Source of the DNA: an uncultured bacterium
Lineage (GTDB): Bacteria > Zixibacteria > MSB-5A5 > CAIYYT01
Assembly: GCA_963726455.1 (NCBI GenBank)
Contig: CAVSCK010000004.1
Coordinates: 992,001-1,056,000, forward strand
Direction: 5' to 3'
Length of the DNA stretch: 64,000 nt
Shown: piece by piece, positions 8,443 to 62,372 of the stretch
How the letters are laid out: every line of letters starts with the position of its first letter
How positions within the stretch are numbered: position 1 is the stretch's first letter
Program-made: the position numbers and the translations under genes
Notes under the pieces: generated by a model
The model's database searches: none
Seen by the model: the letters and a program-made list of their open reading frames with translations, nothing else
Told to the model about the DNA's origin: nothing

Positions 8443-8524
8443 TCCTTCTCCTTTGCGGCCAGTCACGTTGACAGGCCATAGTTGATCGATTGCCAGGTAA
8501 TTGCTGCTCCCCTTGTGCACTGCC

Positions 8525-8947: not shown

Positions 8948-9000
8948 TGTGATCCTTTCCAGTCAGTTTGGTTCGCGTCGGTTTGTCGGCGAACCAATGG

Positions 9001-44986: not shown

Positions 44987-47531
44987 CTACTTGCACGCCC
45001 CACAGGGAGCGGGGCCGCCTGCGAAGATATATTGAATCAGATAGACCACGTCTGAGATATCAACAGACCCATCGCAGTTGGCGTCGCCGGCTGCAATCGG
45101 ATTCGGAGCGGGTCCACCGCTGAAGATGTACTGAATTAAGAAGACAGCGTCAGAGATGTCGATGGCGCCGTCACCGTTGGCGTCGCCGCAAATGTAGGAA
45201 GGCACGACCTCGACATCGAGAATCGTGAACGATATCGGGTCCACCTTGGCGCCGTTGTCCCCGCACATCCTGGTGTGAGTAACACCGAAGAGTCTGGTGC
45301 CCGGTACTTCCGTACTGATACTCAGGTAGTCAATCTGAAGATTCGAAACACCTTGGGCCGCCCAAGTCCACCGGACGCCGTTGGGTGAGGCCGTGAAGTC
45401 ATAGTCGGCTGACGCGACCACACTTGCGGGTTTGCCAGTAGTTGAACCCTTGAAGCCGGTCGGGTAGACGCCCTTGGGGGTCTCCACGATATAGCCGAGG
45501 CCAGTGGTGCCGGCGACGATGCGCGAGTATACTTGCGAGCCGTTGTTAAAGGCCTTGATGGTAGAGGTGCCCGCAGCCGAGGCAACCGCCAGGTTCCAGT
45601 TGTTGGCAGCGGCTTTGGTCATGGAAATACGCATACTGAGCGAGTCCGGGTGAGTAGGCGTGGCGAAGAAGAACTCCGTGCCGAGTGACGCGCTCACCGG
45701 CAGAGCGCCGATTGGGTCGGGGTTTGCGATCGTAATGGACCATATACCGTCATCTTTGTCTGCTTGTGCCGCTACGCCGTCGGAGCCACTGGGACCGATG
45801 TTGCCAACGACCAATGTCGTCTCGACCGGCGTAACGGTGGCGTTGCCGAGTGGGGTTACCATAGCATCACCGTAGCCGAAGGAGCAGGTCTCGGAAGCGA
45901 TCGTCAGGGAGTCCATTTGTTGCGCGTAGATTCCGACACTGCTCAGACCTGTGCAACTGACGTCGATGTTCGTGCTGATACTCAGGTAGTCAATTTGAAG
46001 ATTCGAAACGCTGTGCCCCGCCCACGTCCAGCGGACGCCGTTGGGTGAAGCGGTGAAGTCGTAATCTGATGATGCGACTACACTCGCGGGCTTGCCGCTT
46101 GTACTACCCTTGAAGCCGACCGGGTAGATGCCTTTGGCGGTCTCGACGACATACCCGAGACCGGTGGCGCCGCCGGCAGAGGTCGCATAGACCTGAGTGC
46201 CGTTATTGAAGGCTTTCACACTGCAAGCGGCCGCACTCGACTGAACCGCCAGATTCCAGGTGTTGGCAGCGGCTTTGGTTTGGGATATGGACATGGTGAA
46301 AATTCGGCCTGTGATCGGAATGGGGAAGCTGAATTCAGTTTCCAGTGCCGCACCCGCCGGCAATATATCGCCCTGATCAGGATTCCGTAACTCTCCGCGC
46401 CAGACGATAGTAGACGGCGGGCTGGAGATAGCATCGGGGATGTCTACAGTAACCCCGTCGGGAGTCATGTCGGCGGTGAAGCGGGTGACAGTCAACTGGC
46501 CCCCGCTCACGCCAAGGCAGGTCGTCCCGGCAGAGACATGTTCCAAGCCAAAGATGTTCACAGTATCCGGCCGCGGTGAAGGAATTGGGTTACACGGGCC
46601 GGGCACTGGATAGCCGCCGTACGGGACGAAGGCGCTAAGGCCGTACGTGAAGTAGTTTTGATAGACTTTGATATCCATCGTGTCAATAATGCCGTCACCA
46701 TTCAGGTTGCAGTTATAAATGACGGCAGGGACCGGGCCGCAACCATTGATAAAGGCTGCAAGGTAGGACAAATCAGCGACCGTCAGGCCAATGCCATTGT
46801 TGTCGGCATCGGCGTTGGCGTAACAGATCGGGCTGCATAGATTGGCCTTTATGAGAAAGTTGTAATCGGGTCCGGCGTCATCGGCAAAGCGGTACCAGAG
46901 ACCTCCAGCGTAATAGCAGGAGCGACCGTAGTCGGTGGTGCCGCTGTCACTAAGGATTGACTCCCAGTCAATTGTCCCGCTGGTAGAGATTCCGATATGA
47001 AAATCAGCGGAGAAGACCAGTTGATCTGCTGCAAACGAGACCACGGTAGGAGTGGGGTACTTATTGTATGAACCGGGGGGCAATTTCCGCGAGGAAAGAA
47101 GTGACCCCGGAAGTCCGAAATTATCCGAATAGATGGAGATCTTCACCGTGTCATTACCCCATGCACCGTCCCCGTGATCATAGAAATAAACTGTGGCGGT
47201 CTTTCAGTGTGTCCTGCGAGATCGGGGAAAAGCGCATAGAGAGTGACGTCATTGCGCCGGTCGGTATCGGGAAATAGAACGCCGGATTACCTGCGTAACT
47301 CAGAGTCGAGCAGGGAAATGATGCGGCGCCCAGAGCCGAACTGAGCGGCGATCCTTTGCCCACCTGTTCGAACATGCCCCCTGGCTGGGGTGCGGATGGC
47401 GCGCTACCTCCGAAGATGCCGGAAGAGAGCATTAGACTGACCACCAGCACAATCGGGATGAAAACCGAATTCCTTTTTGTTGTTCCCTGGATTACTGAGA
47501 CCTGTGGGCCCGCGCCTTCTCGCCTTTTCAT
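44987..47531 (-). CDS. Large secreted protein with internal ~120-aa duplication and two dockerin-like domains; apparent indel at ~47202
   Basis: ATG 47531 after GGAGG; removing one base joins QDTLK to TATVYFYDHGDGAWGNDTVKISIY; duplicated GFKGSTxGKPASVVASxDYDFTASPNGVRWTW. Confidence 0.75.
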
Positions 47532-47929: not shown

Positions 47930-47947
47930 AAAGCCGGTGAAGGGACT
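47930..47947. repeat. att core (left junction)
   Basis: AAAGCCGGTGAAGGGACT, identical to 62244-62261 (tRNA-Thr 3' end). Confidence 0.92.
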
Positions 47948-48026
47948 GCACACATTAATGCACTTTCAATTCCCCTGTCGATCAAAATAGTTTCGAAAAG
48001 GCGAATAGCGTAGTATCGTCGCGCTG

Positions 48027-48572
48027 ATGATAGTGCGAACACGACAGCGACCGCAAAATGAGCCTGAGCGGCCGTGGATACTGGCTACTCACAAAGGCGA
48101 TTACGGAAAGTTGCTTCTCGCAGCGCGGCCATTCCAGAAGTCACTTTGTATAGTCCGGCCCGCCATCAAGAGGACGTCACCAAGAATTTCCTATGAGCCG
48201 CTCTATTTCGATTATGTCTTCCTGAGAGCATTGTCGGGCAGCCTGTTTGTCACGATCAAACACCTTCCGGTAAAGGTAGTCTGCTTGGGCGACAAGACTC
48301 TGTCGATCACACAGGCGGAAATGGATAAGATCACTGAGATTACTCGGACTCTCGCCTATCAAGCCGCTCACCCACCGGGGGCGCAAGAATTTGTACAGGA
48401 ACACAAGGGCAAGCAGGTCACCATCACCGGCGGCTCGGCGTGCGGAATGTCCGGTATCGTCGATTCTGAGGCCAGCACGCGGGACGTGTTTGTCAGGATC
48501 GCGGGCCTGCGAATACGGGTGCCGATGGACAGGTTGGATGTTGAGACTGTTGGCGTAACGTCTTCCCCTTGA
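48027..48572 (+). CDS. NusG paralogue (NGN plus KOW) antitermination factor
   Basis: EPLYFDYVFLR (cf. PLFPGYVFV) and KOW GKQVTITGGSACGMSGIV. Confidence 0.7.
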   Translation: MIVRTRQRPQNEPERPWILATHKGDYGKLLLAARPFQKSLCIVRPAIKRTSPRISYEPLYFDYVFLRALSGSLFVTIKHLPVKVVCLGDKTLSITQAEMDKITEITRTLAYQAAHPPGAQEFVQEHKGKQVTITGGSACGMSGIVDSEASTRDVFVRIAGLRIRVPMDRLDVETVGVTSSP

Positions 48573-49016
48573 GCCTTCTGCCGCTTCTCTACGATTATGC
48601 CCTTATTGATGTACCCGTTGTTTCTGAACGATTCTTCGCCTTTTTAGGTGTCAACTTTGTCAAATTTGCGATACGCTTGTCTCTGTTACTTCTCTGCTTA
48701 TCAGTGCTCATGTCGAATTATCCGGGGCGTCCGGCAGTTGTCCGATGGAATCGGACGACTTACACAAATTCCCCGCGAATCATTGTTAATTCGTTGTTCT
48801 CAATGCCTTCCTGAAGGCGGCATTTTCCCCACCAAAACAACAGCATAGCATTGACATTTATCTCTCCTAGCCTGATATTGAGGTCACGTTCACGAAGTAG
48901 AGCACAAATCTAATTGCAGTCTGGAAGCTGATCACGTCCAGGCGCAACTCCTCTGAGTGCGCAGAGTGTCCTGCTGGAACCTCAGCCGCAAAGACCGAAG
49001 GGAGACAATAAAAATC

Positions 49017-49562
49017 ATGTTGGGAAAGATACTGATTGCGGCGGTATTGACGTTTTGGCTGCCAGCCGTCGGCGGGAATCTCACAGTCACGGTGGATACT
49101 GGCATGGCCTTGAACGGCGGCTTATCCAGCCTAAACTTTCATAGCCGACTCAGCGTGTTGAAGATCGTAATTAATGATGATGCTTGCCCTGCCCAATTGA
49201 CAGAAGCGGGCCTGTGGCCGAACAACAATAAGGTTGACTTTCTGTTCTCGACCACCGGCAAACTAACTTCACTGGATAGCATCGATGCTGTTGACATCAC
49301 ATTCCTCGCCTATGATTATTTTGACCGTGCTATACTGAGATTCGCGACGCCAGAAGCATTCTCCCTGTCGCCCGGTAAGGAGATGGATATTGGCAAGCTA
49401 ATGGGGCAAGTCGTCAACGAACGTCAAAGAAGACTATTATTCAAGTCTGTCACCTTTGTTTCTGCAATCAGAAGAAAGGACGGAAGCCTTTGGTTCGCAG
49501 ACGAATCAGCAATCATTGCGCTCGTCAAATCGCTGAATCTCGAATTTCCAACGCAAAACTAA
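49017..49562 (+). CDS. Secreted hypothetical protein
   Basis: Signal peptide MLGKILIAAVLTFWLPAVG; upstream TTGACA promoter at 48851. Confidence 0.65.
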   Translation: MLGKILIAAVLTFWLPAVGGNLTVTVDTGMALNGGLSSLNFHSRLSVLKIVINDDACPAQLTEAGLWPNNNKVDFLFSTTGKLTSLDSIDAVDITFLAYDYFDRAILRFATPEAFSLSPGKEMDIGKLMGQVVNERQRRLLFKSVTFVSAIRRKDGSLWFADESAIIALVKSLNLEFPTQN

Positions 49563-49578
49563 AATTGGAGAATCAATC

Positions 49579-49959
49579 ATGTTCAAGAGATTTTCGCTGA
49601 TCAGTCTTGTCGCAATTCTGTCATTGTTGTTCGCCTGCACCGGCAAACAAGGGCCGACGGGGCCGCAAGGTGATAAGGGCGATCCGGGCGATCCGGGGAC
49701 GGGAACTCGAATTGTCTATCAAAGTACCGCACCCGCAAACAGCCAGCAGTTTGTCGTGATGATCCCAGAGATTGACACCCACGATATGCCGTCAGTCACC
49801 GCGTATACCGCCACGACAACTTATCCGAACTCTTGGTTTCCAATTCCGTTGTATGTTTCTGGCGGGCCGGACTTGGGCGCATGTTTCATCGTTGAAACCG
49901 GAAAGGTTACGCTCGTGAATTGCAGCGGCCTTCTCTACAAGATTGTCATTGTGATCTGA
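49579..49959 (+). CDS. Lipoprotein with short collagen-like repeat
   Basis: Lipobox LLFAC, then GKQGPTGPQGDKGDPGDPG. Confidence 0.8.
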   Translation: MFKRFSLISLVAILSLLFACTGKQGPTGPQGDKGDPGDPGTGTRIVYQSTAPANSQQFVVMIPEIDTHDMPSVTAYTATTTYPNSWFPIPLYVSGGPDLGACFIVETGKVTLVNCSGLLYKIVIVI

Positions 49960-50108
49960 TGCGCGTTTGCCGGTGATCCTGGAGGTCAATACTGACTTGA
50001 CGATGGAAATGAGTTGCCCCTTGCCCGGCGGAAGACTCTGAAAATAAATAAAGAAAACTAAAGGTTTTTAGTTGCGTCGCCGATGACATTTGCGTATATT
50101 GGGTGAGA

Positions 50109-50291
50109 ATGAAAACAGGCACAACCGCGAAATCAGATCGGCAGCTTATCAACTTCGAGATTGAACCAGAGCTGAAGGCACGTCTTGAAACTCAGGCCAA
50201 GAGGGAGCATCGCACTCTCAGCGGTCTAGTAAAGCATATCATTCTGTCGTACTTGGAGTCTCGGGAAAGCGAGAAGAAACGTAGCAGATAA
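50109..50291 (+). CDS. Ribbon-helix-helix (Arc/CopG-like) DNA-binding protein
   Basis: LINFEIEPELKARLETQAKREHRTLSGLVKHII. Confidence 0.75.
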   Translation: MKTGTTAKSDRQLINFEIEPELKARLETQAKREHRTLSGLVKHIILSYLESRESEKKRSR

Positions 50292-50379
50292 GTAAACGGC
50301 GATGCAGACCAGGCACGGTCTACACCGCCTTTGAGAGGCTCAAATGAGCCAGTACACAGTATAACTTGAGAGGTATCAA

Positions 50380-50757
50380 ATGACAACCCGCAAATCTACA
50401 ATCCCCGCCAACGGTCACAAAGACTCGAACCCGTTCCTTACCGATGAAGAGCAGAGACAAGCTATCAGTGGCCTCCAACTCGCTTCATTTGGTCTCGAAG
50501 AGGCAGCGAAATTTGAGAAGCTGGTGGAAGACAGGAGGCGCAATCCCAACTGGCAAAAGGAATTCAAACCCGCTCCCACCCAGCCGTCAAATAGAGAGCT
50601 CCGCAAGTTTCTCAGAGGGAATGAGAGACGTCGTTTCGACGGGGCTATCTCGAAGATGGATTCAGCGATAAGACTGATGAGGGGCAGCAGCGGTCTCCTG
50701 TCGCAATACAGGGAACTCGCCACTAAGAGAATGAATCAGGCCGGAGGCGCGCTGTGA
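50380..50757 (+). CDS. Hypothetical protein
   Basis: 125 aa, RBS GAGG, overlaps the next start (GTGA). Confidence 0.6.
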   Translation: MTTRKSTIPANGHKDSNPFLTDEEQRQAISGLQLASFGLEEAAKFEKLVEDRRRNPNWQKEFKPAPTQPSNRELRKFLRGNERRRFDGAISKMDSAIRLMRGSSGLLSQYRELATKRMNQAGGAL

Positions 50758-51695
50758 ATTCAAGTATTACTCAGACCACTCTGCCGAGCACTAACAGTGT
50801 CGGCTTTCAGCAGCTTATCGATGCTTTTCTGTCCCGCCGAAGTCGAGAGACTCGGCGGGCTTACTCAAAGGACTTGGCCGACTTCGCGACGTATCTTGAA
50901 GTCGCTGACAATGAAACTGCCCTACTGCGGCTCGTGTCCAGTGGCCAAGGACAAGCGAATTCGATGGTCATGGGTTACAAGACGGCGCTGATCGAAGGCG
51001 GCAAATCGCCGAACACGGTCAACCGCCGACTGGCAACCTTGCGCTCGGCCGTCAAGTTAGCAATCACGCTCGGACTTGTGAACTGGACAATAAGCATCGA
51101 AAACGAGCGAGTCGAAGCCTATCGGGACACGACCGGGCCAGGCATTGAGGGATTCAGGAAACTACTCAGGTATTCGGCTCTTTCGGCACCGCCCTTTATG
51201 GGATCTCGGAATACCGCAATTCTGCGGTTATTGTTCGACCTGGCGCTTCGGCGCGGAGAAGTTGCCCAACTCGACTTGGCCGACTTGGACATCGACAACG
51301 GCACTATTCAGGTCATTGGCAAAGGTCGGAGCCAGAAAGCCACTCTGACACTGCCAGCGGCAACATGCGGGGCTTTGAGAGCTTGGCTCATGGTCAGAGG
51401 CGCCCAACCGGGGCCGCTGTTTAGGAACTTTGACCGGGCGCGCAAAGGCAACCGGCTGACCGACGGTGGAATTTACCGGATGGTGCGAAACCTGGGGCGC
51501 AAGATCGGTTTGGTAGTCCGACCTCACGGCTTGCGCCATGCCGCGATCACAAAGGCGCTTGACCTCACCGGCGGCAACGTCCGTAGCGTGCAAAAGTTCT
51601 CCCGACACCGGAACATGCAGACCTTAATGGTCTATGACGACAACAGACAGAATCTCGCCGGTACAGTCTCAAATCTGATTGCCGAGGCGGTTTAA
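50754..51695 (+). CDS. Tyrosine recombinase (XerC/D-like resolvase)
   Basis: LRRGE, GKGR, RPHGLRH, SRHRN...VYD catalytic motifs. Confidence 0.9.
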   Translation: MNSSITQTTLPSTNSVGFQQLIDAFLSRRSRETRRAYSKDLADFATYLEVADNETALLRLVSSGQGQANSMVMGYKTALIEGGKSPNTVNRRLATLRSAVKLAITLGLVNWTISIENERVEAYRDTTGPGIEGFRKLLRYSALSAPPFMGSRNTAILRLLFDLALRRGEVAQLDLADLDIDNGTIQVIGKGRSQKATLTLPAATCGALRAWLMVRGAQPGPLFRNFDRARKGNRLTDGGIYRMVRNLGRKIGLVVRPHGLRHAAITKALDLTGGNVRSVQKFSRHRNMQTLMVYDDNRQNLAGTVSNLIAEAV

Positions 51696-51760
51696 ATTCG
51701 GTAGAATATGAGCACGGAAACCATCATTATCAGGCTCATATTCAGCCGGGGAAGTGAACT

Positions 51761-51994
51761 ATGAGTAGCGTTTACATGACCACAGCACAAGCCGCCGAGC
51801 GCCTGCAATACAGTTATAGCCACTTCGTGAGGGTCTTATTGCCAAAGTTGCCGGGCGTCATCAGAAATGGCAAGAATGGCGCTTATCGAATTCCCGTCGC
51901 GTCGTTGGTCGAATTTGAACGAAAGCATTTGGTCACTCACAACCCGGATTCGAAACCAGCAGCCTTTCGAGGGGGCACTGAGCAGAAGGAATAA
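51761..51994 (+). CDS. Excisionase-like HTH protein (possible recombination directionality factor)
   Basis: YMTTAQAAERL...GAYRIP. Confidence 0.7.
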   Translation: MSSVYMTTAQAAERLQYSYSHFVRVLLPKLPGVIRNGKNGAYRIPVASLVEFERKHLVTHNPDSKPAAFRGGTEQKE

Positions 51995-52020
51995 TCAAGA
52001 GACATTCAAGTGGCTCAATA

Positions 52021-53400
52021 TTAGCTCCCAGCATTGGGTGACCTGAGAATTCTCTCCAGCTTCCGCCTGCTGATCCCCAACGCCCTCATAGTCGCACTCT
52101 TGTTGCCGTTATTCTTTTCCATGACAGCCGTCACAAAACGCTGTTCGAGCGTCACGATCGGCCAATTAGTATCAGCAACAAAACGGTGTGTGGGAGCGAT
52201 CTTATTGGGCTCGGCGATGGTTTGAGTCCCTTCAAAATTCATTGCCCACTTGGAACCGTATCTTCGAAAGAAATCGAGGGGACTTTCATCCGGGATATAA
52301 GTATCGAGCGGATTCTCGTGAATCTTTCGTTTGGCCGCTTTGATGAGGAACTTCTCTGCGAGCAGACGATAATCCTTCTCGCCAAAAGCGAGTATTGTTT
52401 CTCTACTCCACGCCCACTTCTTGAGTGTGCTCCGGTCAATGAACGAAAGTTGCCATCGGAAGGGATTCAGTCCAGCGAAACTTATGTCGGCCGCAAGCCA
52501 TCTTTCGGAGAAATACTCCCCCCCGAAGTAAGTGTCGGCATCGAGAAACCAACTGTAATTTCCTCGCCAGTGCTTCCACATAGGATGAGACCAGCGATGC
52601 CTATCGATACAGATATATCTCAGTACTTCATTCTTCAACTGCCGCACGTTGCCCTCCCATTCGTTCATCAGAAGTATGTGGACCAGAGCAGCCGGAAATA
52701 GGTCTATTCTTGCGATCTTCTCGTCGGCGCAAAATTCGTCGCAGAAATGCAGGAATAACTCTACCGCGTCAAGTCTTCTGTTTCTAAGGGGTTCCACTTC
52801 TATCTTCAATGGAAATCGCCAATACAGATCAGGACGGATTCCATATCTCCAGTCGTCTTCATTATTTCCTGTGGTGACACCACCACCGGCGTTCTTGACC
52901 GGCCGATTTGTTGCCGCAATGATTCGGCAATCAGACTTCTTGATTTCTGGAGACCCGAGTTTGTGGTATTCGCCCGACTCTATGAAACGGAGGATTTCTC
53001 CCTGAACCGACGAATCCAATCCGCCTATTTCATCGATAAAAAGAGTGCCTCCATTCGCCTCGAATACGAGGCCTTCCCTGTTCTCGGCACCAGTGTAAGC
53101 CCCTTTCTTGCATCCGAAAATCTGGCCGTGCGCCAACTGAGGATTTCCCTGAAAGTCGTACGAATTTACCGGCAGAATTCTTCCGCCTCGATTTCGGTCA
53201 CTCTTCTCATGCAAAAGATGCGCGACAACTTCTTTGCCAACACCCGACTCCCCCACGATCAGCACCGGCTCCCGCCGCGGAGCGTAAAGCTCGACATCGC
53301 CGCGCACTTGAGTCGTCGGTCCACTGCTACCGATCATCTTCTGTCTGGATACTTGGGTTTTCTCGGGTTGAACCGTCACTTCATTATGTGCGTTTTGCAT
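52021..53400 (-). CDS. sigma54 enhancer-binding protein lacking an N-terminal sensor domain
   Basis: MIGSS at residue ~22, GESGVGKE, GAYTGA, LFIDEIG, WEGNVRQL, long aromatic insert, Fis-type HTH GNKSATMRALGISRRKL. Confidence 0.85.
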   Translation of the reverse strand: MQNAHNEVTVQPEKTQVSRQKMIGSSGPTTQVRGDVELYAPRREPVLIVGESGVGKEVVAHLLHEKSDRNRGGRILPVNSYDFQGNPQLAHGQIFGCKKGAYTGAENREGLVFEANGGTLFIDEIGGLDSSVQGEILRFIESGEYHKLGSPEIKKSDCRIIAATNRPVKNAGGGVTTGNNEDDWRYGIRPDLYWRFPLKIEVEPLRNRRLDAVELFLHFCDEFCADEKIARIDLFPAALVHILLMNEWEGNVRQLKNEVLRYICIDRHRWSHPMWKHWRGNYSWFLDADTYFGGEYFSERWLAADISFAGLNPFRWQLSFIDRSTLKKWAWSRETILAFGEKDYRLLAEKFLIKAAKRKIHENPLDTYIPDESPLDFFRRYGSKWAMNFEGTQTIAEPNKIAPTHRFVADTNWPIVTLEQRFVTAVMEKNNGNKSATMRALGISRRKLERILRSPNAGS

Positions 53401-53500
53401 AATATGGTTCCTTTAGCTTAAGCATTTCGCTAAGGCCAAGCTAACACAAGTTAATAATAACGCAATCACTTTCTTCCAGACATCAGCATAATCCTTTGCA

Positions 53501-53547
53501 CATCAAGCAGTTATTTACGCGCCTTCCGGTTTGGCTCGGCTCTTGCT
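53501..53547 (+). promoter_or_regulatory. IHF-like site plus sigma54 -24/-12 promoter of the rightward satellite operon
   Basis: CATCAAGCAGTTA (53501-53513) and TGGCTCG-GCTC-TTGCT (53532-53547). Confidence 0.7.
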
Positions 53548-53583
53548 ATACATACGGGAATGAAGCGATCCAAAGGAGATAAG

Positions 53584-53796
53584 ATGAATCAGTTTCGCTT
53601 GAAAAGAGTGCGGCTGGGGTTGACCCAGTACGACCTGTGGAGGGAGACCGGCATACCGCAATCTCGGATTTCGCTACTCGAACGCGGCTTCTACGAATTG
53701 AAGCCAGACGAAGACGAGAGGCTGAGATCGGTGTTGAAGATGCGCCCTCGGACTCCCAAAAATGACAAAACATCACTTGGCGCAACGGCTGCGTGA
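53584..53796 (+). CDS. XRE-family HTH protein
   Basis: RVRLGLTQYDLWRETGIPQSRISLLERG; RBS AAGGAG. Confidence 0.85.
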   Translation: MNQFRLKRVRLGLTQYDLWRETGIPQSRISLLERGFYELKPDEDERLRSVLKMRPRTPKNDKTSLGATAA

Positions 53797-54002
53797 ACTT
53801 GAGGAACCCAGTGCCGCGACAAAGGCCACAGACGAAAGTGAATGTCAACCTCGGGACACCTAACCCAGACGGCCTTGCTCTGCTTGTCAACTTCGTTTCG
53901 ACCCGACTCGTGGTATCGATTCTCCAAAGTAACCAAGAACACAACCAAGAGGGCGACACCGTTGGGAGCCCTTCACCGGAAAGGAGTTCACAACGTGTGT
54001 AG
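53793..54002 (+). CDS. Hypothetical protein
   Basis: 69 aa, GTGA overlap with the XRE gene. Confidence 0.45.
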   Translation: MNLRNPVPRQRPQTKVNVNLGTPNPDGLALLVNFVSTRLVVSILQSNQEHNQEGDTVGSPSPERSSQRV

Positions 54003-54213
54003 CAAACTCGATTCGTTCAAAGAGTTTGTCCTCCGAGGTCACAAGTTAATCAGCGAGGGACAGGCCGACAAAGCTTTGTCTCTTGCATTCTGTCTACTCG
54101 ACAGCTTGGGCAATGTGGCGTTTCGCGAACAGGAACCTAAGAGAGCGTGCGTTTCCAAAAGCGTGCAGCCTTCGAATTCGAAACGAATTAACCAAATACA
54201 AAGGAAGAGGTAA
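53995..54213 (+). CDS. Hypothetical protein
   Basis: GTG after AAGGAG; 72 aa. Confidence 0.5.
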   Translation: MCSKLDSFKEFVLRGHKLISEGQADKALSLAFCLLDSLGNVAFREQEPKRACVSKSVQPSNSKRINQIQRKR

Positions 54214-54217
54214 AACG

Positions 54218-54667
54218 ATGACAGGCGAGATCAAGGTACTCGGACAAAAGCCAGTTCAAGTCAGCTTGGCAGGACAGGAATTCACCATCTATCCGGCGAC
54301 ACACTATCGGATGAATCAGATCCTTGAGTGCGCCGCAACGGCGAGAGCAAATTCGGAAGCCATGCGCAAAGCAGAGGAGACCGAAGATGCGGCAATCAAA
54401 GCGCGGGGCGAAGAAATCCCCATCAGACCACTCAAGTCGACGCCGGTCGATTACGGAATTCTCCGGCTTATCTGCAAGGCTCCAGACACTTTCGAGAACA
54501 GCAAATTGGTTGAAGGCAAGGTTCCCGCTGTACTGACCAACGAATTCTGGAGCCAGCAAGTCCAGACGGCGGAAATAGCGGGCTTATTCGAGGTCTTTGT
54601 GTCCCTGCTTGACATCGACAAGCTCATTAAGAACGCTCTCTCACTCGTGGGACAGACCCGTGTGTAG
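54218..54667 (+). CDS. Tail assembly chaperone-like protein
   Basis: ATG after GAGG; VQVSLAGQEFTIYP N-terminus; immediately upstream of the tape measure gene. Confidence 0.55.
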   Translation: MTGEIKVLGQKPVQVSLAGQEFTIYPATHYRMNQILECAATARANSEAMRKAEETEDAAIKARGEEIPIRPLKSTPVDYGILRLICKAPDTFENSKLVEGKVPAVLTNEFWSQQVQTAEIAGLFEVFVSLLDIDKLIKNALSLVGQTRV

Positions 54668-54715
54668 CCCCATGACAGAAGATGACTCGGATTTTCCAAA
54701 AAACTTGGAGCGTAA

Positions 54716-57504
54716 ATGCCCGGTGTAGTTGACATCCTGAAATATGTGTTGGAGCTGGACTCCGGCCAACTCAAAGCCGAAGCGAAACAATCCGACACAA
54801 TAATCAACCAGTTGTCAGGCACAATCAAGGGCGCGCTTGTTGGCGCATTGGGTGCCGCCGCTGTTGGTTTCGCTACGGTCAAGATCGGCGAATTTCTGAA
54901 AGATGCCACCCTGACGGCGGCACGTACCGAAGTGTTGGGAACTGTCTTGCATCAGGTCGGCAAGGTGGCGGGTGAATCAAGCGGATATCTTGACGGCTTA
55001 GCCGACAAGGTTGAGGCGCTAGGGGTCACTACCCAAGCAAGTCGCACTCTGCTTATTCGACTGATGCAGTCTCATCTTGACCTTGCCTATGCCGTGAAGA
55101 TTGCGACAGTTGCGCAAGACTTAGCCGTAGTCGCTGATCAGAATTCCTCTGAGGCCGCCGAAGGAATTACGATAGCAATTGCCAAAACCGATGTTGAGCT
55201 GTTGCGGCAATATGGTATCGTCATTAACGCAGAGCGACTATTCAAACAGTACGCCCAGACAATCAATAAATCAGCGTCCGAACTTTCCGATCTCGACCGT
55301 CGCACGGCGATTGCTAACGAGGTATTTCGCCAAGGGGCTGCCTCCGCTGGTACTTACGAAGCGGCAATGGCTGATGTCGGCAAGCAGATAACATCAATGC
55401 CTCGATACGTCGAGGAGATGAAGAACGCTCTCGGAAAGGGGTTTCTCCCCCTGCTCGCTGACATTGTGCATTTACTTCGCGACGCCACAGTCGGCCTTAC
55501 CGATTTTCTGACACCGGCGACAGAACTAAAAACAGCCGAACTAAACAAACTACAGTCAGAATTTAGCAAGATCACTGGAATCTTACCTGACTTGGTAAAG
55601 GAATTTGTAAATCTATCCACCAAGACAAGACTCACCAACACCGAACAAGATCGGCTCCTTACCATTCAGCAACAGATCGCCGCGCTCGCTCCCGGCTATA
55701 TCACAGCACTCAACGATGAGGGTATGGCGCTCGACCTTAACGCCAAATCCTTAGCCAACTACACCGGATTGCGCAAGGAACAGATTGAAACTATTAAGAA
55801 TGATCTGATTTCAGCACTGTTAGCGGAGGAGGAGGCACAAGATCGCGCCAACAAGAAGAACCTTGCTGCGATTGAGAATTTCAAGAAGATAGCCGCTTCG
55901 AACAAAGCTGCTGGTGTTAAGGTTGGCTATGGCATCCCAGGCCAAATCAATGAGATAGTGATCGAATTGTCGAAGGGCATCCAGCGCTCACTTGAATTAC
56001 AACAGCGCATCGCGGCACTTGGAAGCGAGGGGAGGATGCTGCCAAGAAAATTGAGAAGATACCAGAAGACCTGAAAATCGAGATCAAATTCGGCAGCGAG
56101 AACTTGTCCTCCGCCGAGGAGCAGATAAAGCGCATTCAGTCATTAGTCGAGGCGGTTCAATCCCAATTCGGCGACCAAGGGATTACGCCCGATAGCGACA
56201 AGTTGATTGCGGCATTGCGGTCACTTATCAATTCGGAAGCGGCGATGCTTTCGACCGATGCCCAGAGGATTATCATTGACGCACTCAACAAGGCGCGGGA
56301 CAACCAACGCAGTGATGCTAAGTCGAAATCCGATCAGGAGCGATATTACAAGGACATACAGGAGAGCGAAGCCAATGCAGCGAAAGATCGCCTCAATGAC
56401 ATAGAAAAGGAAAAGCGGGCGCGTGTAAATGCAGCCGTCGATGTCGCTGACGCCCTTGGTTATGCCGCTACCAATTTCTTTGGTCTCTTCGATGAAGGTA
56501 TTGCCCGAATCGCCTCGAATCTCAGTAACGCGATCAGTGGCGCAATTTCTGGATTCTCACAAGGCGGAGTTGCCGGGATTGCCGGAGCTATCGGCTCGAT
56601 TCTTTCAGGATTCGCTTCCCTTTTCAGCGGTGGAGCGGACAAGATTGTCGTGTCGCAATACGAATTGATCGAAGCCATCGAAAATTGGGAGTCTACCATT
56701 GAGACATTGACGCCAAAAGAAAAAACCGCGCAACAAGAGATGGCCGAACTCGGTATTGAGGCGGCCAGCAGATTAATGGGCAACGGTTGGGACTGGAATC
56801 AGATTGTGGCACTGCTCAGACCCCTATTTGAATCTGTCGGGTTATCCATTCCACAAGGCATTACATATGAGCAATTTCTTGGTTGGGGAAATGACATCAT
56901 CGCGGACATTGGCGCATCAAATGCACAAACGACCGCTGAATTGAAAGCGGATAATGCCGCGTCGCGCAGGGAACTTGTTCTGAGTCAAAAGACGGGAACT
57001 GACGCGCTTGAGACCATCGCCGATCTTGATAAACTCTATGCCTTGAGCCCCGAGGAATTGCATGCTCTCTATGAAGAAACGATGGCGAAGTTTGGTGACA
57101 AAATGTCAGATAGCGACAGAATCAACACACAGGCATTGATTAACGATTACCACAGAGGAGAGGCTGAGCGAGCGCAGAGCGGGGCCGGAGCCGAGCAGAC
57201 TCAGGCGTCCCGCTCGATTCAGAAAATAACCGAACGCCAGGTCGACTCGCTCATTTCCGCGTTGTCCACCATCGACCTGCACATAACCGAGGGCATACAG
57301 AAATTGCTCGATGGCATCCGCAACACGACTAACAGGACAACCATGAATGCGGCGGCGACTATCGAAGTGGCGGTAATCAACGCGGGTGTAATCAACACGG
57401 GGTCGATCAGAGTAGCGGGATCGATGAGTGGCAATAATGGCGCATCGGCGAATACGAAGCAATTACTTACTGTCGAATCACGCAGCCTAGGTAGGAGGGT
57501 GTAA
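54716..57504 (+). CDS. Tape measure protein (~930 aa), split by a 1-bp indel at ~56030
   Basis: TMP domain AARTEVLG...AQDLAVVADQNSSEA...GTYEAAM...GKQITSMPRY; one extra G in GAGGGGAGG gives GSEGEDAAKKIEKIPEDL, in frame with 56104-57504. Confidence 0.85.
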
Positions 57505-57556
57505 GGCATGTCATCGGAAGCAAACACAGCGTGTGCGAGAATCACCGGAGTTGACT

Positions 57557-57985
57557 GTGTCTAACCGCGCAAAAATGACACCTGAAAAAAGAGAGACGTT
57601 CCTCGCTACGCTTGAGACTACGGGAGGGCAGATAACAAAGGCATGTAAGGCCTGTGCTGTTTCGCGCGACGTAATCTATCGACTTCGCAAAAGTGATGAA
57701 CAATTCGGGAAAGACTTCGAAGCCGCACTCGACAAAGGCATTGACCTGCTCGAAGCGGAATGCAAGCGGCGCGCATTTGAAGGCGTTCCCAAACCCGTGT
57801 TCTATAAAGGCAAAGAGTGCGGGATCATTCAGGAATACTCCGATACACTTGCGATCTTCCTGATGAAGGCTCACCGGTCGAAGTACAAAGAGAAATTCCT
57901 ACTGACTGGTGAAGGCGGCGGCGCAGTCAAAGTCCTCGTTGAATATGTGAACAAACCCAATGGAGTGTATCGTGAAGTGTGTTGA
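57557..57985 (+). CDS. terS: Terminase small subunit
   Basis: HTH FLATLETTGGQITKACKACAVSRDVIYRLRK plus RRAFEGVPKPVFYKG...YSDTLAIFLMKAH. Confidence 0.75.
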   Translation: MSNRAKMTPEKRETFLATLETTGGQITKACKACAVSRDVIYRLRKSDEQFGKDFEAALDKGIDLLEAECKRRAFEGVPKPVFYKGKECGIIQEYSDTLAIFLMKAHRSKYKEKFLLTGEGGGAVKVLVEYVNKPNGVYREVC

Positions 57986-58397
57986 CCTCAAGACAGTTTT
58001 CGGACGGAGATACAAGATTGCTGCTGATCCCTCGGCCGGGGCCCGCAACGTCGATCCGTGGTACTGGACTATCCCCTGCCGGCGCGGCGAAATCTATCCC
58101 TATGGCGGCGACTTCCTTTGTGCCTCGGTACGAAATGGGGCGGTTTCCAAGTCGATGCGCTCCTGGCCCGAGCTGACGGTTTTGCAGGACGCCGACGACG
58201 AGACAGTCTTCAAGTTTCACGTCAACAACTTCGAAAAGGTAGCTCAGGCCGTGGGTGCCAAGAAACGGCGGCGAATGTCAGTCGAGACCATGAAGAAAAT
58301 TGGTGCAGACACGGCGTACGTGACGCCAAACGGGGGTGAATTTCAACGATCTCCCCAAGGGGCGAGTGATTTGACACGGGGGGCAGTTCGTGTATGA
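57960..58397 (+). CDS. Hypothetical protein
   Basis: 145 aa, overlaps both neighbours; DPWYWTIPCRRGEIYPYGG. Confidence 0.65.
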   Translation: MECIVKCVDLKTVFGRRYKIAADPSAGARNVDPWYWTIPCRRGEIYPYGGDFLCASVRNGAVSKSMRSWPELTVLQDADDETVFKFHVNNFEKVAQAVGAKKRRRMSVETMKKIGADTAYVTPNGGEFQRSPQGASDLTRGAVRV

Positions 58398-59022
58398 TTT
58401 AGACACCCTAAAGGCCGGCGTCACCATCGAGAACATCCTTGACGATTTCGGGATTGCCCACCGCCATCACAGGGCAGCCTGTCCCGTTCACCGTGGCGAC
58501 AATAGGTCTGCTTTCAGCTTCAACGATGAGGCTTTCTACTGCCACACCCAAGGATGCAAGGGCGGCGTTATCGACCTGGTCATGGCTCTGGCCGGGACTG
58601 ATTTCAGGGGCGCGCTGGACTATCTGGCTCGCAAGAAGGGAATCGCGAATGATTTCGGAATCACCGGGACGACTCAGTTTACAAGGAGTCTGCCTGACAA
58701 TTCTGATCCATTCAGGGAAGAAAGGAAACGGCTCTCACCAAAAGACTATGTGGAGTTGCTTTGTATGGCCGACGATCTTAACCGCGCTGAATCCGACCTC
58801 GCCGAATGCAGGAGTAACATTGGCACACTGACCGCCCAATTATCCCAACTTATCCACCTCAAGAGGCGGAAACAGATTGCCAAATCGCTGTACTACTTGA
58901 ACACACAGAAGATCGACGACAACCGGCTCGCACTGTTCGACGAGCAGGAAGCACAACTCAACTACAAGGTCAAAGAGATAAAGCGGCAAATCAGCGAGTT
59001 CAGGAAGAAGGTAAGGCAATGA
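58390..59022 (+). CDS. CHC2 zinc-finger (DnaG-type zinc-binding domain) protein without TOPRIM
   Basis: ACPVHRGDN...FYCHTQGCKGGVIDLV, then coiled coil. Confidence 0.8.
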   Translation: MYDLDTLKAGVTIENILDDFGIAHRHHRAACPVHRGDNRSAFSFNDEAFYCHTQGCKGGVIDLVMALAGTDFRGALDYLARKKGIANDFGITGTTQFTRSLPDNSDPFREERKRLSPKDYVELLCMADDLNRAESDLAECRSNIGTLTAQLSQLIHLKRRKQIAKSLYYLNTQKIDDNRLALFDEQEAQLNYKVKEIKRQISEFRKKVRQ

Positions 59023-60263
59023 TTAGCGACTGCGAAATTGACGCCGAGTTTTGCCAAGAGACCGACGCTGACATCGACCTGACGATACCCGAATCCGGCT
59101 TTCTCCTGAAATATTACAACCTAATCTGCCCTATCACAGAGGCGCCTGAAGTCTACCATCTGTTTATGGGAATGTCTTTGATCGCCGGTGTCCTCGGGCG
59201 CAAAGTGTTTCTCGACTGGACGGCTTACAAGATTTACCCGAACCTGTATATCATCCTGGTCGGCGCGTCTTCAGCAATCAAGAAATCGACGTCAATCAAC
59301 CAAGCCCGACCGTTTCTTAACGCCGTCGATCCCAACCTGATCTTTCCAAATGAATTCTCGAATGAAGCTTTCTTGGAGCTCCTTGTCACTCAGCCGCAAG
59401 GTTCGCTGTTCTGGGATGAATTCGGCGGCGTGCTCGCGACATTCGAGCGTTCGTACATGTCCGGTACCAAAGAAATGCTGACCTCGATGTTTGACTGTCC
59501 GAGTGACTATCGACGGTTGCTCAAAGGCAACGCCAAGAGCAAAGAGTCGGGCAAGGTCGTTATCATCCGGGAACCGTACATCAATATCGCCACTACTTCA
59601 ACCCTTGAGTGGCTCGTCAATCGGATCAAGGAACAGGATATCAAGTCGGGTTTCCTGGCTCGATTTGTCTACGTGCCCGGTAAAGAGCCGAGCAAACGAC
59701 TTTCGCGCCCGCCCAAATTAGATCAGAAGTTGAGGTCCGAAATCATCATGGAGTTGAAGGCTATTCGAGAGATTTCGGGCGAAGCGGAACTCACTGACGA
59801 CGCGTTTCTGTACTATGACACCTGGTACAACGGTGTCTTTGATCAGATACAGAAGGGCGACAATCGCGACAAGCTCTCCCCTTTCTTTAGCCGGCTACTG
59901 GTCTACGCTCTCAAATTCGCCCTGATCTACCAAGTGTCCGAAGATCACTCGCTGACAATTCAGGAACACAACATGATCAGGGCGTGTCAGTTGGTCGACT
60001 TCCTCAAGCGCAACATCAAAGACATGGTCGAAAATGAACTGGTTTTTGGTGTGGACGCCATTCAGTTGAAGAGAGTGTTGGAAGTCATCAAGTCAGAGGG
60101 TGCGATTGAACGGAGCAAACTTTTCACGCGAGTGAACTATCGAAAAGACATTCTCAACCGACTCATCGATACCCTTCTTGAGCAGGAACAGATTTCGGTT
60201 TCTCGGGAACAGTGGCACAAGGGGAAGAAGCCGAGAACGATTTACACCTATAACGGTAAGTGA
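59019..60263 (+). CDS. DUF3987 (YfjI-like) P-loop helicase-like protein
   Basis: NLYIILVGASSAIKKST, WDEFG, SGFLARF; C-terminal winged helix. Confidence 0.8.
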   Translation: MISDCEIDAEFCQETDADIDLTIPESGFLLKYYNLICPITEAPEVYHLFMGMSLIAGVLGRKVFLDWTAYKIYPNLYIILVGASSAIKKSTSINQARPFLNAVDPNLIFPNEFSNEAFLELLVTQPQGSLFWDEFGGVLATFERSYMSGTKEMLTSMFDCPSDYRRLLKGNAKSKESGKVVIIREPYINIATTSTLEWLVNRIKEQDIKSGFLARFVYVPGKEPSKRLSRPPKLDQKLRSEIIMELKAIREISGEAELTDDAFLYYDTWYNGVFDQIQKGDNRDKLSPFFSRLLVYALKFALIYQVSEDHSLTIQEHNMIRACQLVDFLKRNIKDMVENELVFGVDAIQLKRVLEVIKSEGAIERSKLFTRVNYRKDILNRLIDTLLEQEQISVSREQWHKGKKPRTIYTYNGK

Positions 60264-60293
60264 CAACCACTTAGGGCGCTTGAAAGGAAATCA

Positions 60294-60528
60294 AAACTTT
60301 GGTAAATTTAGATAAACTTCGCGAAATGGTATGTTATGCGCAGACAATGAGTTACCATATAACTTCTAAACTACTAACTACTACTACTACTACTACAGGG
60401 GGCGCTGACTCACCTGAAATCAAAGGGAAAAAGAGGGAGAGATGCAAGAAGTTGTCGAAGTTTAGAAGTTTACACCTAAACCCTTTTATCTAATTACGAT
60501 ACCTATTCGCGAACATTTGCGAAGTTTA
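60294..60528. other. Putative replication origin: convergent AAACTTC/GAAGTTT iterons around a (CTA)n tract
   Basis: Heptamers at 60294, 60314, 60360 and inverted at 60448, 60457, 60465, 60521. Confidence 0.55.
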
Positions 60529-60626
60529 CGACTGCTTCTGTTGCCCACTTGGACTCGGGGAAACAAGTTGCCAAAGACCTTTAGGGCGCATACTGTGACA
60601 CCGACTACCGAAAGGAATAACAGACG

Positions 60627-62372
60627 ATGAAGTGCGCCGTCTATGCCCGGTACAGCTCCGACATGCAGAAACAGACCAGCATCGAAGATCAGGTGCGGGA
60701 GTGTCGGCAGTTCATCGAGCACAGACAGTGGGAAGTTGCCGACGGCCGGGTGTACTCTGACTACGCCATCAGTGGAGCTGATATCAACCGCACGGGTTAC
60801 CAGGCACTCAAGGCAGACGCATACAAGAAACTGTTTGCCTGCATCGTAGTTGACGACTTATCGCGACTCGGAAGGGACGCCGGAGAAGCAATCCAAATCT
60901 ACGGGGAATTGACTGCCTATGGAGTTAACATCGTCTCTGTGTCGGATGGAATCGAAACGGCTTCATCTTCTTCGAAGATTCCCTACTACTTCAAGAGCAT
61001 TGCCAACGAACTCTTTCTGGATGAACTGAAGGCCAAGATCGTTCGCGGTCTCAAAGGTCAAGTCTCTCGCGGTTACTCTGCCGGCGGCCGGACCTACGGC
61101 TACTACTCCGAGCCGGAACTTGTTCCGGGTGGCGGCGCTGACAAATTCGGCAGACCTCGGCGGCACGGGGTTAAGATCAAAATCAATGAGAAAGAAGCGG
61201 AAGTCGTGCGAATGATCTTCCGACTCCGCGCCGATGGTCTTGGACAACGTGCGATTGCCACTCGCCTGAATGAACTGAAAATCCCTTCCCCATTTGCACA
61301 CGTCGACCACTTTAGCGGAACTTGGTCGCCCGACACGGTACGCCACATGTTGCAACAGCGGAGATATATCGGCGACTGGACTTGGAACAAGAGCCGGTCT
61401 CTCAAGAAGAATCCTCTCGGTAAGCGAATTGTCAGAGAGAAGACAGTCGACCAATGGATTGAACACGTCGACGAATCATTGCGGATCATTCATCAAGATT
61501 TGTGGGACGCTGTACTGGCGACATTTGCAGACAAAGAAACACGATTGCGGTTCACGCCGGGGCCGAAAGGTGTCTATCTCTTGGGTGGGCTGCTTAAGTG
61601 TTCTCGCTGCGGATCGTCACTTGTCGGAATGAAATCGAAAGGATGGACTGCCTATGTGTGCAGCGGCAACAGAAGTAAAGGCAAGGTGTACTGTCCAGCC
61701 TCACACCGACTACCGCTCATCGAGGCTGACTCCGGAGTTCTGCAAGGCTGCAAAGAAATTCTGTTTTCTGATGAAACACTCGCATTGATTTCACGCCAAG
61801 TCAACGAAGCGTTGGCGACTATCGAGAAGCAGACTCCCAAGCGGCGAGATCGCTTAGCGAGAAGACTCAACACTCTTGACACGTCCATTGAGCGCCTACT
61901 TGATTTTGCGGAGACTGAACCGAGTAGTCCTGCTCTTGGTGAACGCCTACGGACTCTGGAAGCGGAAAAGCGCACTGTCCAGGCCGAACTTGATGCACTC
62001 AAAACCGAAACCCGTAGGACTAACCGACTGTCCGAAGAGTTCATCAAGGCCAGTCTGCAAGGGCTCCTACCTGCCGTGAGCGCTGACGAAAGCAGCCGCC
62101 AGGAGCTGAAATTCATCCTCAGCAAGATGTTTCCGGAAAAATTGTCTGTCACGATTCGCGAAAAAAATGGCTATGTTGAGTTTGGCGTGCTTGGTAACCT
62201 AATGCCCCTCAATATCCTTCCGAAGGCTTCTGCGTTAATGTATAAAGCCGGTGAAGGGACTCGAACCCCCGACCAGCTGATTACAAATCAGCTACTCTAC
62301 CAACTGAGTTACACCGGCTTAAGAAATCTGCCTGCCCGTTTCAAGTACCGTCACTCCGACGCGCAGGATTAG
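60627..62372 (+). CDS. Large serine recombinase (integrase); C-terminus reads through att and antisense to tRNA-Thr
   Basis: YARYSS, DDLSRLGRD, recombinase domain, zinc ribbon CSRCGS...YVC. Confidence 0.95.
   Translation: MKCAVYARYSSDMQKQTSIEDQVRECRQFIEHRQWEVADGRVYSDYAISGADINRTGYQALKADAYKKLFACIVVDDLSRLGRDAGEAIQIYGELTAYGVNIVSVSDGIETASSSSKIPYYFKSIANELFLDELKAKIVRGLKGQVSRGYSAGGRTYGYYSEPELVPGGGADKFGRPRRHGVKIKINEKEAEVVRMIFRLRADGLGQRAIATRLNELKIPSPFAHVDHFSGTWSPDTVRHMLQQRRYIGDWTWNKSRSLKKNPLGKRIVREKTVDQWIEHVDESLRIIHQDLWDAVLATFADKETRLRFTPGPKGVYLLGGLLKCSRCGSSLVGMKSKGWTAYVCSGNRSKGKVYCPASHRLPLIEADSGVLQGCKEILFSDETLALISRQVNEALATIEKQTPKRRDRLARRLNTLDTSIERLLDFAETEPSSPALGERLRTLEAEKRTVQAELDALKTETRRTNRLSEEFIKASLQGLLPAVSADESSRQELKFILSKMFPEKLSVTIREKNGYVEFGVLGNLMPLNILPKASALMYKAGEGTRTPDQLITNQLLYQLSYTGLRNLPARFKYRHSDAQD
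62244..62261. repeat. att core (right junction)
   Basis: AAAGCCGGTGAAGGGACT, identical to 47930-47947. Confidence 0.92.
62246..62318 (-). tRNA. tRNA-Thr(TGT)
   Basis: GCCGGTGTAACTCAGTTGGTAGAGTAGCTGATTTGTAATCAGCTGGTCGGGGGTTCGAGTCCCTTCACCGGCT; cloverleaf, anticodon TGT, CCA not encoded. Confidence 0.97.

Follow-up and report, generated by a model that had tools for sequence, protein, structure and literature searches.

What kind of element carries a tape measure gene, a chaperone-like gene and a small terminase gene of phage type, and no other gene for a virion? The question is raised by a 64-kb stretch of DNA from an uncultured bacterium of the Zixibacteria (contig CAVSCK010000004.1, positions 992,001 to 1,056,000; hereafter the window), in which a 14.3-kb island is inserted at a tRNA gene. 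An initial annotation, made from the sequence letters, had read the island as a capsid-less phage satellite of a new type. Judging from gene content alone, we regard the satellite reading as an even call, because the island is a bounded element with its own replication genes, an orphan small terminase gene, a full-length tape measure gene preceded by a chaperone-like gene, and no other virion gene.

Boundaries and phage-type genes of the island

The island lies between two copies of the 18-bp direct repeat AAAGCCGGTGAAGGGACT, which occurs exactly twice in the 64-kb window. No third copy was found in the window even when three mismatches were allowed, and none of 100 shuffled sequences gave two or more matches. 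The repeats delimit positions 47930-62261, and the right copy coincides with the 3' end of a minus-strand tRNA-Thr(TGT) gene (Rfam tRNA, 70.1 bits). Across most of the island the G+C content is 0.47-0.53, compared with 0.55-0.59 in the flanks. The island is thus a 14.3-kb integrative element with its own replication genes, sitting in the 3' end of tRNA-Thr, and the exact attachment (att) boundaries given in the initial annotation are right. An empty site was not found in five genomes (three of the same genus, two of the same family); homologues of the two flanking genes co-occur only in one of them (G014), on separate contigs. Searching 40 relatives with a 19-kb DNA query returned no copy of the island, the only matches being to the tRNA, dockerin-type repeats and pieces of recombinase genes.

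Genes were called by Pfam, PHROGs and NCBIfam scans of translated frames (Table 1). The three phage-type genes belong to a rightward operon that starts with an XRE-type regulator gene, whose ATG is preceded by a good ribosome-binding site (AAGGAG). From the chaperone candidate to the DUF3987 gene the successive intergenic distances are +48, +28, -26, -8 and -4 nt, so that the tight packing of the rightward genes that had been noticed at first sight is borne out, with overlaps of 26, 8 and 4 nt between terminase and DUF3987. Families of capsid, portal, large terminase, tube, baseplate and lysis proteins had no match among the 21 main open reading frames (ORFs) in Pfam and PHROGs. A further 100 stop-to-stop frames of at least 55 aa on both strands gave no structural or lysis family either; only an Arc/CopG-like frame and the XRE frame matched anything. 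The absence of capsid, portal, large terminase, tube and lysis genes and of their remnants, claimed in the initial annotation, is therefore confirmed in both sets of frames. A scan for sigma-70 promoters and terminators gave nothing above shuffled sequences.

The small terminase has 140 homologues, including many with PF20901, a family that the window protein itself does not reach. In L098, the one terminase locus that was scanned against PHROGs, genes for a large terminase (phrog_2, 1.2e-21), a portal, a scaffold and a major head protein come after the homologue. More generally, a frame of at least 300 aa lies within 600 nt downstream in 75 of the 76 IMG/VR terminase loci with at least 1.5 kb of downstream sequence. 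In the sole exception, L274, which resembles a fragment of a phage, a 492-aa frame lies another 1.4 kb downstream. The window copy is succeeded by replication genes and not by a large terminase. Since the relatives precede a large frame and the window copy precedes replication genes, we consider the latter an orphan. A PF20901 search of the host's class matched 2 of 285 genomes, the host's own gene not being among the matches, and a sequence search of the PDB with the terminase gave nothing meaningful.

Upstream of the terminase gene, two consecutive long, helical frames correspond to the two parts of one tape measure protein. The first, of 452 aa, itself gives only weak tape-measure matches (phrog_4211, 6.1e-4; TMP_2, 0.036). 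Its family is more telling: in an alignment with seven homologues of 248-791 aa, 28-35% identical, three of the eight sequences matched phrog_58 (best 4.4e-21). The best of 481 tape-measure relatives in IMG/VR, in contig L099, is a single frame of 932 aa; the first window frame aligns with its residues 7-351 and the second with its residues 546-878. The contig is that of an ordinary phage, with portal, protease, major head and minor tail genes. The two genes that lead up to its chaperone gene (7574-9345), at the expected place of a major tail protein, match glycosyltransferase-type PHROGs (9e-24 and 6.3e-4).

A second copy of the gene, on a 13,847-bp contig of another assembly, encodes a single frame of 929 aa. 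Residues 1-439 of this sister protein equal the first window frame with one difference, and residues 464-929 the second with seven. In the window the frame changes right after ...AALGSEG, near 56030, where a G-run is one base shorter than the sister protein needs. We conclude from this comparison that the tape measure gene is most probably full-length (about 929 aa) and that the break in the window is an assembly indel or a very recent mutation. A tape measure sets the length of a phage tail at about 0.15 nm per residue; by this rule, a 929-aa protein would roughly correspond to a tail of about 140 nm. The gene is preceded by a chaperone-like gene, yet no tube or tail-tip genes surround it. 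The 929-aa protein had no tblastn match in 50,697 phage records and nothing meaningful in a PDB sequence search.

The chaperone-like gene encodes 149 aa and stops 48 nt before the tape-measure start. Its product is 30% identical over 153 aa (3.4e-11) to an L099 ORF (9342-9836) that directly precedes the L099 tape measure gene, and the Atlas cluster closest to it carries the name 'tail assembly chaperone' (score 0.92). Neither it nor its 12 relatives gave a Pfam or PHROG match, and a search of 1.84 billion cluster representatives found only ten relatives. The chaperone alignment matched nothing in JGI metagenomes or IMG/VR, and a PDB sequence search gave a chance match only. A structural model built from 13 sequences reached a mean predicted local distance difference test (pLDDT) score of 80.3, compared with 56 for a model from four sequences. 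On synteny and homology, the gene is a tail assembly chaperone candidate. Thus, of the small terminase, chaperone and tape measure named in the initial annotation, the first stands on its phrog_4044 match, the tape measure stands as a gene split into two frames in the window, and the chaperone is retained as a candidate.

Recombination, replication and putative sigma-54 control

The island encodes two recombinases. The 3' end of the large serine recombinase gene touches a tRNA gene in three islands, namely the window (Thr) and two islands of sister genomes, L093 (Thr) and L095 (Met), and for this reason the serine recombinase is likely the integrase. Its frame runs over attR, with about 37 further codons drawn from the antisense strand of tRNA-Thr; after excision these codons would instead come from the left end of the island, and the protein would finish in a different C-terminal tail. 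The tyrosine recombinase has a SAM-like N-terminal domain (3e-5) and matches XerC/XerA models at about 1e-28, and it may serve in multimer resolution or DNA inversion. Downstream of the terminase, a protein of 145 aa precedes the primase-like and DUF3987 proteins; its Atlas neighbours are unnamed viral and Planctomycetota clusters, with scores of 0.94-0.95. The 364-nt spacer between the DUF3987 and serine recombinase genes could be a putative origin or a regulatory region of the recombinase. At 60372-60397, 3' of the DUF3987 gene, there is an (ACT)n trinucleotide repeat together with several short inverted repeats. Among the functions first assigned to this part of the island, integrase, resolvase-type and replication genes are all present; the proposed excisionase corresponds to an HTH_17 candidate that stays under the family cut-off, and the proposed origin to the repeat-rich spacer.

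The operon faces away from a gene for a sigma-54 activator, a bacterial enhancer-binding protein (bEBP). Its AAA+ core begins at residue 22, with no N-terminal receiver or sensor domain ahead of it; about 150 residues belong to no family, and a Fis-type helix-turn-helix (HTH) is present. A GAYTGA loop, which we take to contact sigma-54, can be read in the translation. The protein matches the NorR, RtcR and PspF models at 1e-41 to 1e-49, all under their cut-offs. In the 184-nt spacer between the activator and XRE genes, TGGCTCGGCTCTTGCT lies 37 nt ahead of the XRE start. Similar sites, read by eye, occupy the same place in two related islands, GGCAC-N5-TTGCA in L095 and GGCAT-N5-TCGCA in L096, at 46 and 41 nt before the XRE starts, respectively. 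The host possesses rpoN (PF04552, 2.8e-58, contig C5). Putative sigma-54 control of the rightward operon, as proposed in the initial annotation, is therefore supported by the activator, the well-placed promoter, the like promoters in two relatives and the host rpoN.

A search of a phage collection with the activator matched 63 records, mostly of bacterial-looking sequence. One record with an activator-like gene, MT835853.1 (L264, 1-16402, labelled 'Bacteriophage sp.' and unannotated), was dropped; its dense overlapping ORFs look bacterial chromosomal. A full-text literature search found no publication linking sigma-54, RpoN or enhancer-binding proteins with phage satellites or with phage-inducible chromosomal islands (PICIs).

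Table 1 Features of the island in the window, with the evidence for each
Feature	Position	Strand	Evidence
attL, left 18-bp repeat copy	47930..47947		exact repeat
NusG/UpxY-like protein, cargo or antitermination factor (weak)	48027..48572	+	NCBIfam UpxY 3.8e-7, 30 bits against a cut-off of 100
Hydrophobic 81-aa frame	48569..48814	+	no family match
201-aa protein with hydrophobic N-terminal stretch, cargo	48957..49562	+	no family match
126-aa lipoprotein-like protein with short collagen-like G-x-y run (GPTGPQGDKGDPGDPGTG)	49579..49959	+	tail-fibre PHROGs, residues 20-53 only
Arc/CopG-like ribbon-helix-helix regulator	50103..50291	+	phrog_582 8.4e-6 and phrog_7325 1.5e-5 on frame 50052-50288
125-aa protein, overlaps start of tyrosine recombinase	50380..50757	+	no family match
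Xer-like tyrosine recombinase (resolvase, invertase or second integrase)	50754..51695	+	PF00589 (Phage_integrase) 2.6e-20
HTH_17 (excisionase/AlpA-like) candidate	51761..51994	+	PF12728 2.6e-4, 21.7 bits, under the Pfam cut-off of 27
Sigma-54 activator (bEBP)	52021..53400	-	PF00158 3.2e-38; AAA_lid_14; HTH_8 5e-5
Sigma-54-type promoter motif TGGCTCGGCTCTTGCT (GG-N10-GC), facing the rightward operon	53532..53547	+	one mismatch to TGGCACG-N4-TTGCW
XRE-type HTH regulator, first gene of the operon	53585..53796	+	phrog_8 and phrog_3 about 5e-5; NCBIfam Y4mF-type HTH 2.7e-4
Uncertain 123-aa frame between XRE gene and chaperone candidate, gene status unproven	53842..54213	+	no family match
Tail assembly chaperone candidate, 149 aa	54218..54667	+	synteny, homology to L099 ORF, language-model likeness
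Tape measure, N-terminal 452-aa frame	54716..56074	+	homologues match tape-measure PHROGs; collinear with L099
Tape measure, C-terminal 466-aa frame (open from 55996)	56104..57504	+	collinear with L099 and sister protein
Small terminase subunit, Sf6 type (likely start 57557)	57533..57985	+	phrog_4044 2.4e-35, 138/150 residues
145-aa protein between terminase and primase	57960..58397	+	no family match
CHC2 zinc-finger primase-like protein	58390..59022	+	PF01807 3.9e-7; primase PHROGs; 39% identical in L093 and L094
DUF3987 primase/helicase-type replication protein	59019..60263	+	PF13148 5.3e-13; phrog_14296 4.9e-30; 43% identical in L094
Repeat-rich low-G+C spacer, 364 nt	60264..60626		short direct and inverted repeats, (ACT)n run; G+C 0.47
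Large serine recombinase	60627..62372	+	PF00239 Resolvase, PF07508 Recombinase, PF13408 Zn_ribbon_recom; phrog_95 1.1e-85
attR, right 18-bp repeat copy	62244..62261		exact repeat
tRNA-Thr(TGT), integration target	62245..62319	-	ARAGORN; Rfam

The left part of the island holds small genes, some of them putative cargo. The NusG-like and hydrophobic 81-aa frames, separate and overlapping in the window, are joined as one 262-aa frame in the sister copy, and their junction reflects an indel in one of the two assemblies. The matches of the 126-aa lipoprotein-like protein to tail-fibre PHROGs are short and spurious-looking, and the protein is probably cargo. Outside the island, a dockerin-domain gene lies at 44987-47146. 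Its 3' part, a segment of about 190 nt (45003-45200), recurs at 70-79% identity in many places in the host genome and in most related genomes; this recurrent C-terminal dockerin-type segment looks like a widespread sorting or anchoring domain of the group.

Relatives of the backbone and comparison with known satellites

Four islands in sister genomes (L093 to L096) have a related backbone. Their serine recombinases are 40-49% identical to that of the window; the other backbone proteins, namely the tyrosine recombinase (56% in L093), the activator (31-37%), and the zinc-finger and DUF3987 proteins (39-43%), recur in different sets from one island to the next. L093 carries the serine recombinase (49%) abutting tRNA-Thr, DnaB, a DnaD-like protein, the primase zinc finger (39%), a 695-aa protein, the tyrosine recombinase (56%) and DUF6602. 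In L094 the serine recombinase is accompanied by the zinc finger and by DUF3987 (43%). L095 combines a serine recombinase abutting tRNA-Met with a replication-O protein, an XRE gene, the activator and a type I restriction subunit, and L096 holds the tyrosine recombinase, DUF6602, the activator, an XRE gene, a replication-O protein and the serine recombinase. The cargo, namely the type I restriction protein HsdR (L095, 12722-15862) and DUF6602 beside the tyrosine recombinase (L093, 13490-14254; L096, 454-1209), suggests that the family carries defence genes. None of the four has a structural or packaging gene, and all three phage genes of the window are absent from them. The far ends of these related islands were not found within the stretches examined.

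These comparisons of sequence indicate that the backbone belongs to a family of small islands within the same bacterial family, with exchangeable replication modules and cargo, of which only the window member appears to hold phage genes. The family backbone consists of a serine recombinase at the att site, an Xer-like recombinase, a sensor-less activator, a sigma-54 promoter and an XRE-led operon with replication genes. Because the backbone relatives are small islands without structural genes, the window island does not look like a deleted prophage, and the order tape measure, terminase, primase cannot come from a phage map by one deletion. The outcome that the initial annotation had named as fatal to its proposal, that the relatives are full prophages from which the island derives by one deletion, is thus not what was found.

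The relatives of the tape measure and of the terminase tell a different story, as they lie in phage-like contigs, and the two examined in detail (L098 and L099) are full phages. Across 240 tape-measure loci from GTDB, IMG/VR and JGI and 80 terminase loci, no other island gene is shared, apart from the L099 chaperone and a weak serine-recombinase match in L058. The other copy of the whole gene set, on the 13,847-bp contig of the sister protein, has about 99% protein identity and is not independent. The initial annotation had also allowed that no second example of the gene set might exist, and this came half true: a near-identical copy exists, and a diverged one was not found. The host genome is 100% complete by markers and consists of five contigs; any helper would be an outside phage.

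We then compared the island with the known kinds of satellite. The closest in its way of working are the PICI-like elements (PLEs) of Vibrio cholerae. In chimeric tails, the tape measure, chaperone and baseplate hub of the helper are replaced by those that PLEs encode, a substitution of the tail core reported in Nature in 2026, and deletion of the PLE tmp gene cuts transduction by 96-99.9% (PMC12987554). The accessible part of that article also points to predicted tmp genes in other putative satellites, which its authors did not test. Like a PLE, the island is of satellite size, encodes a large serine recombinase and has adjacent tmp and tac genes, without tube, sheath or fibre genes. Unlike in PLEs, no hub-like, RepA-type initiator or capsid-remodelling gene was recognised in any island frame. 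The helpers of PLEs are myoviruses, whereas the tape-measure relatives of the island lie in siphovirus-like contigs. Further features that set the island apart from PLEs as described are a small terminase of its own, an additional recombinase of the tyrosine type, a tRNA target and sigma-54 control.

A second comparison is with the EPIP satellites of Mycolicibacterium aichiense. According to the accessible part of a bioRxiv preprint of December 2025 (PMC12822802), these are small and carry genes for a tape measure, a small terminase, an HTH regulator and a serine integrase, all of which the island has as well. The same portion of the preprint ties the EPIP tape measure to altered tail length. 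As far as that text goes, EPIPs list head-to-tail adaptor, stopper and scaffold/capsid-type genes, in contrast to the island, which has no head-tail genes. EPIPs were isolated as particles with a known helper prophage, in an actinobacterial host; for the island no helper was found, and it has replication genes and sigma-54 control. The island shares a way of working with PLEs and EPIPs and is a member of neither by the features compared, that is, the hub, the head-tail genes, the replication module, the target and the control.

The general anatomy is that of PICIs, including the Staphylococcus aureus pathogenicity islands (SaPIs). The island is of about 14 kb, within the 10-18 kb of that type, and has att repeats, an integrase, divergent regulators mid-element, a primase/helicase module followed by a likely origin, and as packaging gene its own small terminase without a large one; capsid and lysis genes are absent. 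An orphan small terminase is a hallmark of PICI-type satellites. The PICI switch is a Stl repressor or AlpA, and PICIs usually integrate by a single tyrosine recombinase encoded at one end. In the island, by contrast, the divergently oriented regulators are of the sigma-54 activator and XRE types, with no Stl/AlpA master regulator and with HTH_17 below its cut-off, and no cpm-, ppi- or rpp-like gene was recognised. We know of no PICI described with a tape measure or a chaperone. With P4-like satellites the island has in common its integration at a tRNA gene, a primase/helicase of the broad P4-alpha/DUF3987 kind and a possible antitermination factor (NusG-like, weak); sid, psu, delta and cos features, in contrast, were not recognised in it. 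P4 itself, to our knowledge, encodes neither a terminase nor a tail protein.

Weighing the satellite reading

If the island is a satellite, its life cycle may be pictured as follows. The operon of a backbone island would have taken up three phage genes, for the chaperone candidate, the tape measure of about 929 aa and the Sf6-type small terminase. Upon infection by a helper of siphovirus type, the activator would switch on the sigma-54 operon, and the element would excise and replicate by means of its own primase and helicase. The small terminase of the island could then recruit the large terminase of the helper to island DNA, while its chaperone and tape measure would enter tails made of the tube, tip and fibres of the helper, as in PLEs. 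No gene for capsid resizing is in sight, and a head of normal size may take up about three copies of the island (43 kb); as a rough estimate, this length would agree with that of the contigs with terminase relatives (33-45 kb).

Several observations weigh against the satellite reading. The backbone relatives lack the three phage genes, so the family need not consist of satellites, and the genes are possibly a recent, unselected pick-up. The tape measure is broken into two frames in the window assembly, and the sister copy has fragmentary gene calls as well, for the serine recombinase (193 aa), the tyrosine recombinase (188 aa), the activator (142 aa) and DUF3987 (290 aa). One or both assemblies thus carry indels, with indels in both as the simplest reading, or else the copies are decaying. 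No diverged second example was found in GTDB species genomes, IMG/VR, JGI metagenomes or 284 other genomes of the class. A helper was not found in the host, where TerL_ATPase, Terminase_6N, HK97 capsid and Phage_portal gave no match (control genomes were positive), and a comparison of 1,728 ORFs from about 160 phage-like loci with the host genome gave a cluster of matches only at the tape-measure region. The small terminase occurs in none of the 284 other class genomes and the tape measure in two, at 31% and 21% identity. For the chaperone, fold searches brought no confirmation: Foldseek gave nothing at E<=0.001 in PDB or BFVD (best BFVD E 0.025), although 8 of the 50 best BFVD matches bear the name chaperone (E 0.2-0.9). 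The best Z score in VIA was 4.2, and YqbN (3klu) gave Z 3.8 with a root-mean-square deviation of 5.4 over 87 aligned residues. Finally, sigma-54-like motifs are not above chance in the window (8 found versus 11.7 expected, with at most two mismatches), and for this reason the case for the promoter rests on its position and on its recurrence in relatives.

Some of these points suit another explanation, that of a mobile backbone island which passively captured phage DNA (chaperone, tape measure and terminase) with no role for it, and in which decay is starting. The four backbone relatives without phage genes, the split tape measure in the window assembly, the lack of a helper or related prophage in the host or its class, and a gene set known from a single lineage would all be expected in that case. 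The arrangement of the genes speaks otherwise. All three are embedded in the operon, with the regulator before them and the replication genes after them, and are closely spaced or overlapping. The 929-aa frame is whole in the sister copy, and the break in the window is a single difference in the length of a G-run. Chaperone and tape measure are retained as a pair in phage order, and the orphan small terminase is just what PICI-type satellites have. Moreover, the tail-core and packaging regions would need to be captured separately and joined without any other phage DNA. We therefore consider inert capture unlikely, while giving it some weight.

Another way to account for the three genes is that they act as decoys in defence, a foreign tape measure with its chaperone and a foreign small terminase poisoning the tail assembly and packaging of an infecting phage, in which case the island need not be packaged itself. 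Backbone relatives do carry defence-type cargo (HsdR in L095; DUF6602 in L093 and L096), and interference with tail assembly encoded by islands or prophages has been described in the accessible parts of two articles (PMC11364771, PMC10884400). PLE11 even pairs its own tape measure with a tail-assembly inhibitor (PMC12987554). As far as the accessible text of the two articles goes, however, known tail-assembly inhibitors are small dedicated proteins and not full-length tape measures (PMC11364771, PMC10884400), and the PLE tape measure serves transduction (PMC12987554). The island also has a complete outfit for excision and replication, and defence and satellite life are not exclusive. Taken together, a role as decoys alone strikes us as improbable.

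That the island is the remnant of a temperate siphovirus prophage whose head, tail and lysis genes were deleted is very hard to credit, for although tRNA integration, recombinases, XRE regulators, replication genes, terminases and tape measures all occur in prophages, the 100 extra frames hold no trace of the lost genes and the genes are compact, the order tape measure, terminase, primase is unlike the phage map of L098 and L099, the backbone occurs in four sister genomes as small islands without structural genes, and the tape-measure relatives share only the L099 chaperone with the island and the terminase relatives nothing.

The satellite reading of the initial annotation is thus partly supported, and its claim of a new satellite type fares less well, since tail-core substitution is already known from PLEs (PMC12987554), and EPIPs, in the accessible part of the preprint, have a tape measure of their own beside a small terminase and a serine integrase (PMC12822802). 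The freshest part of the finding is sigma-54 control. A bolder proposal, which we put forward tentatively and hold to be doubtful, is that the island would be the first satellite outside Vibrio and the actinobacteria to replace the tail core and the packaging specificity of a helper at once, and the first to be induced via a sensor-less sigma-54 activator, whose 150-residue segment would sense a helper protein. The sigma-54 island family would then be a new phage-responsive lineage, and this member would have become a satellite by gaining three phage genes.

For the biology of satellites, the island offers the same pair of chaperone (candidate) and tape measure in a distant bacterial group and in an unrelated island, here beside an orphan small terminase. 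Should the phage genes be inert, it would still be an example of a non-phage island picking up phage parts. The private activator and sigma-54 promoter in the island family suggest an activator-based response of mobile elements to phages, and it is this regulatory side that may matter more.

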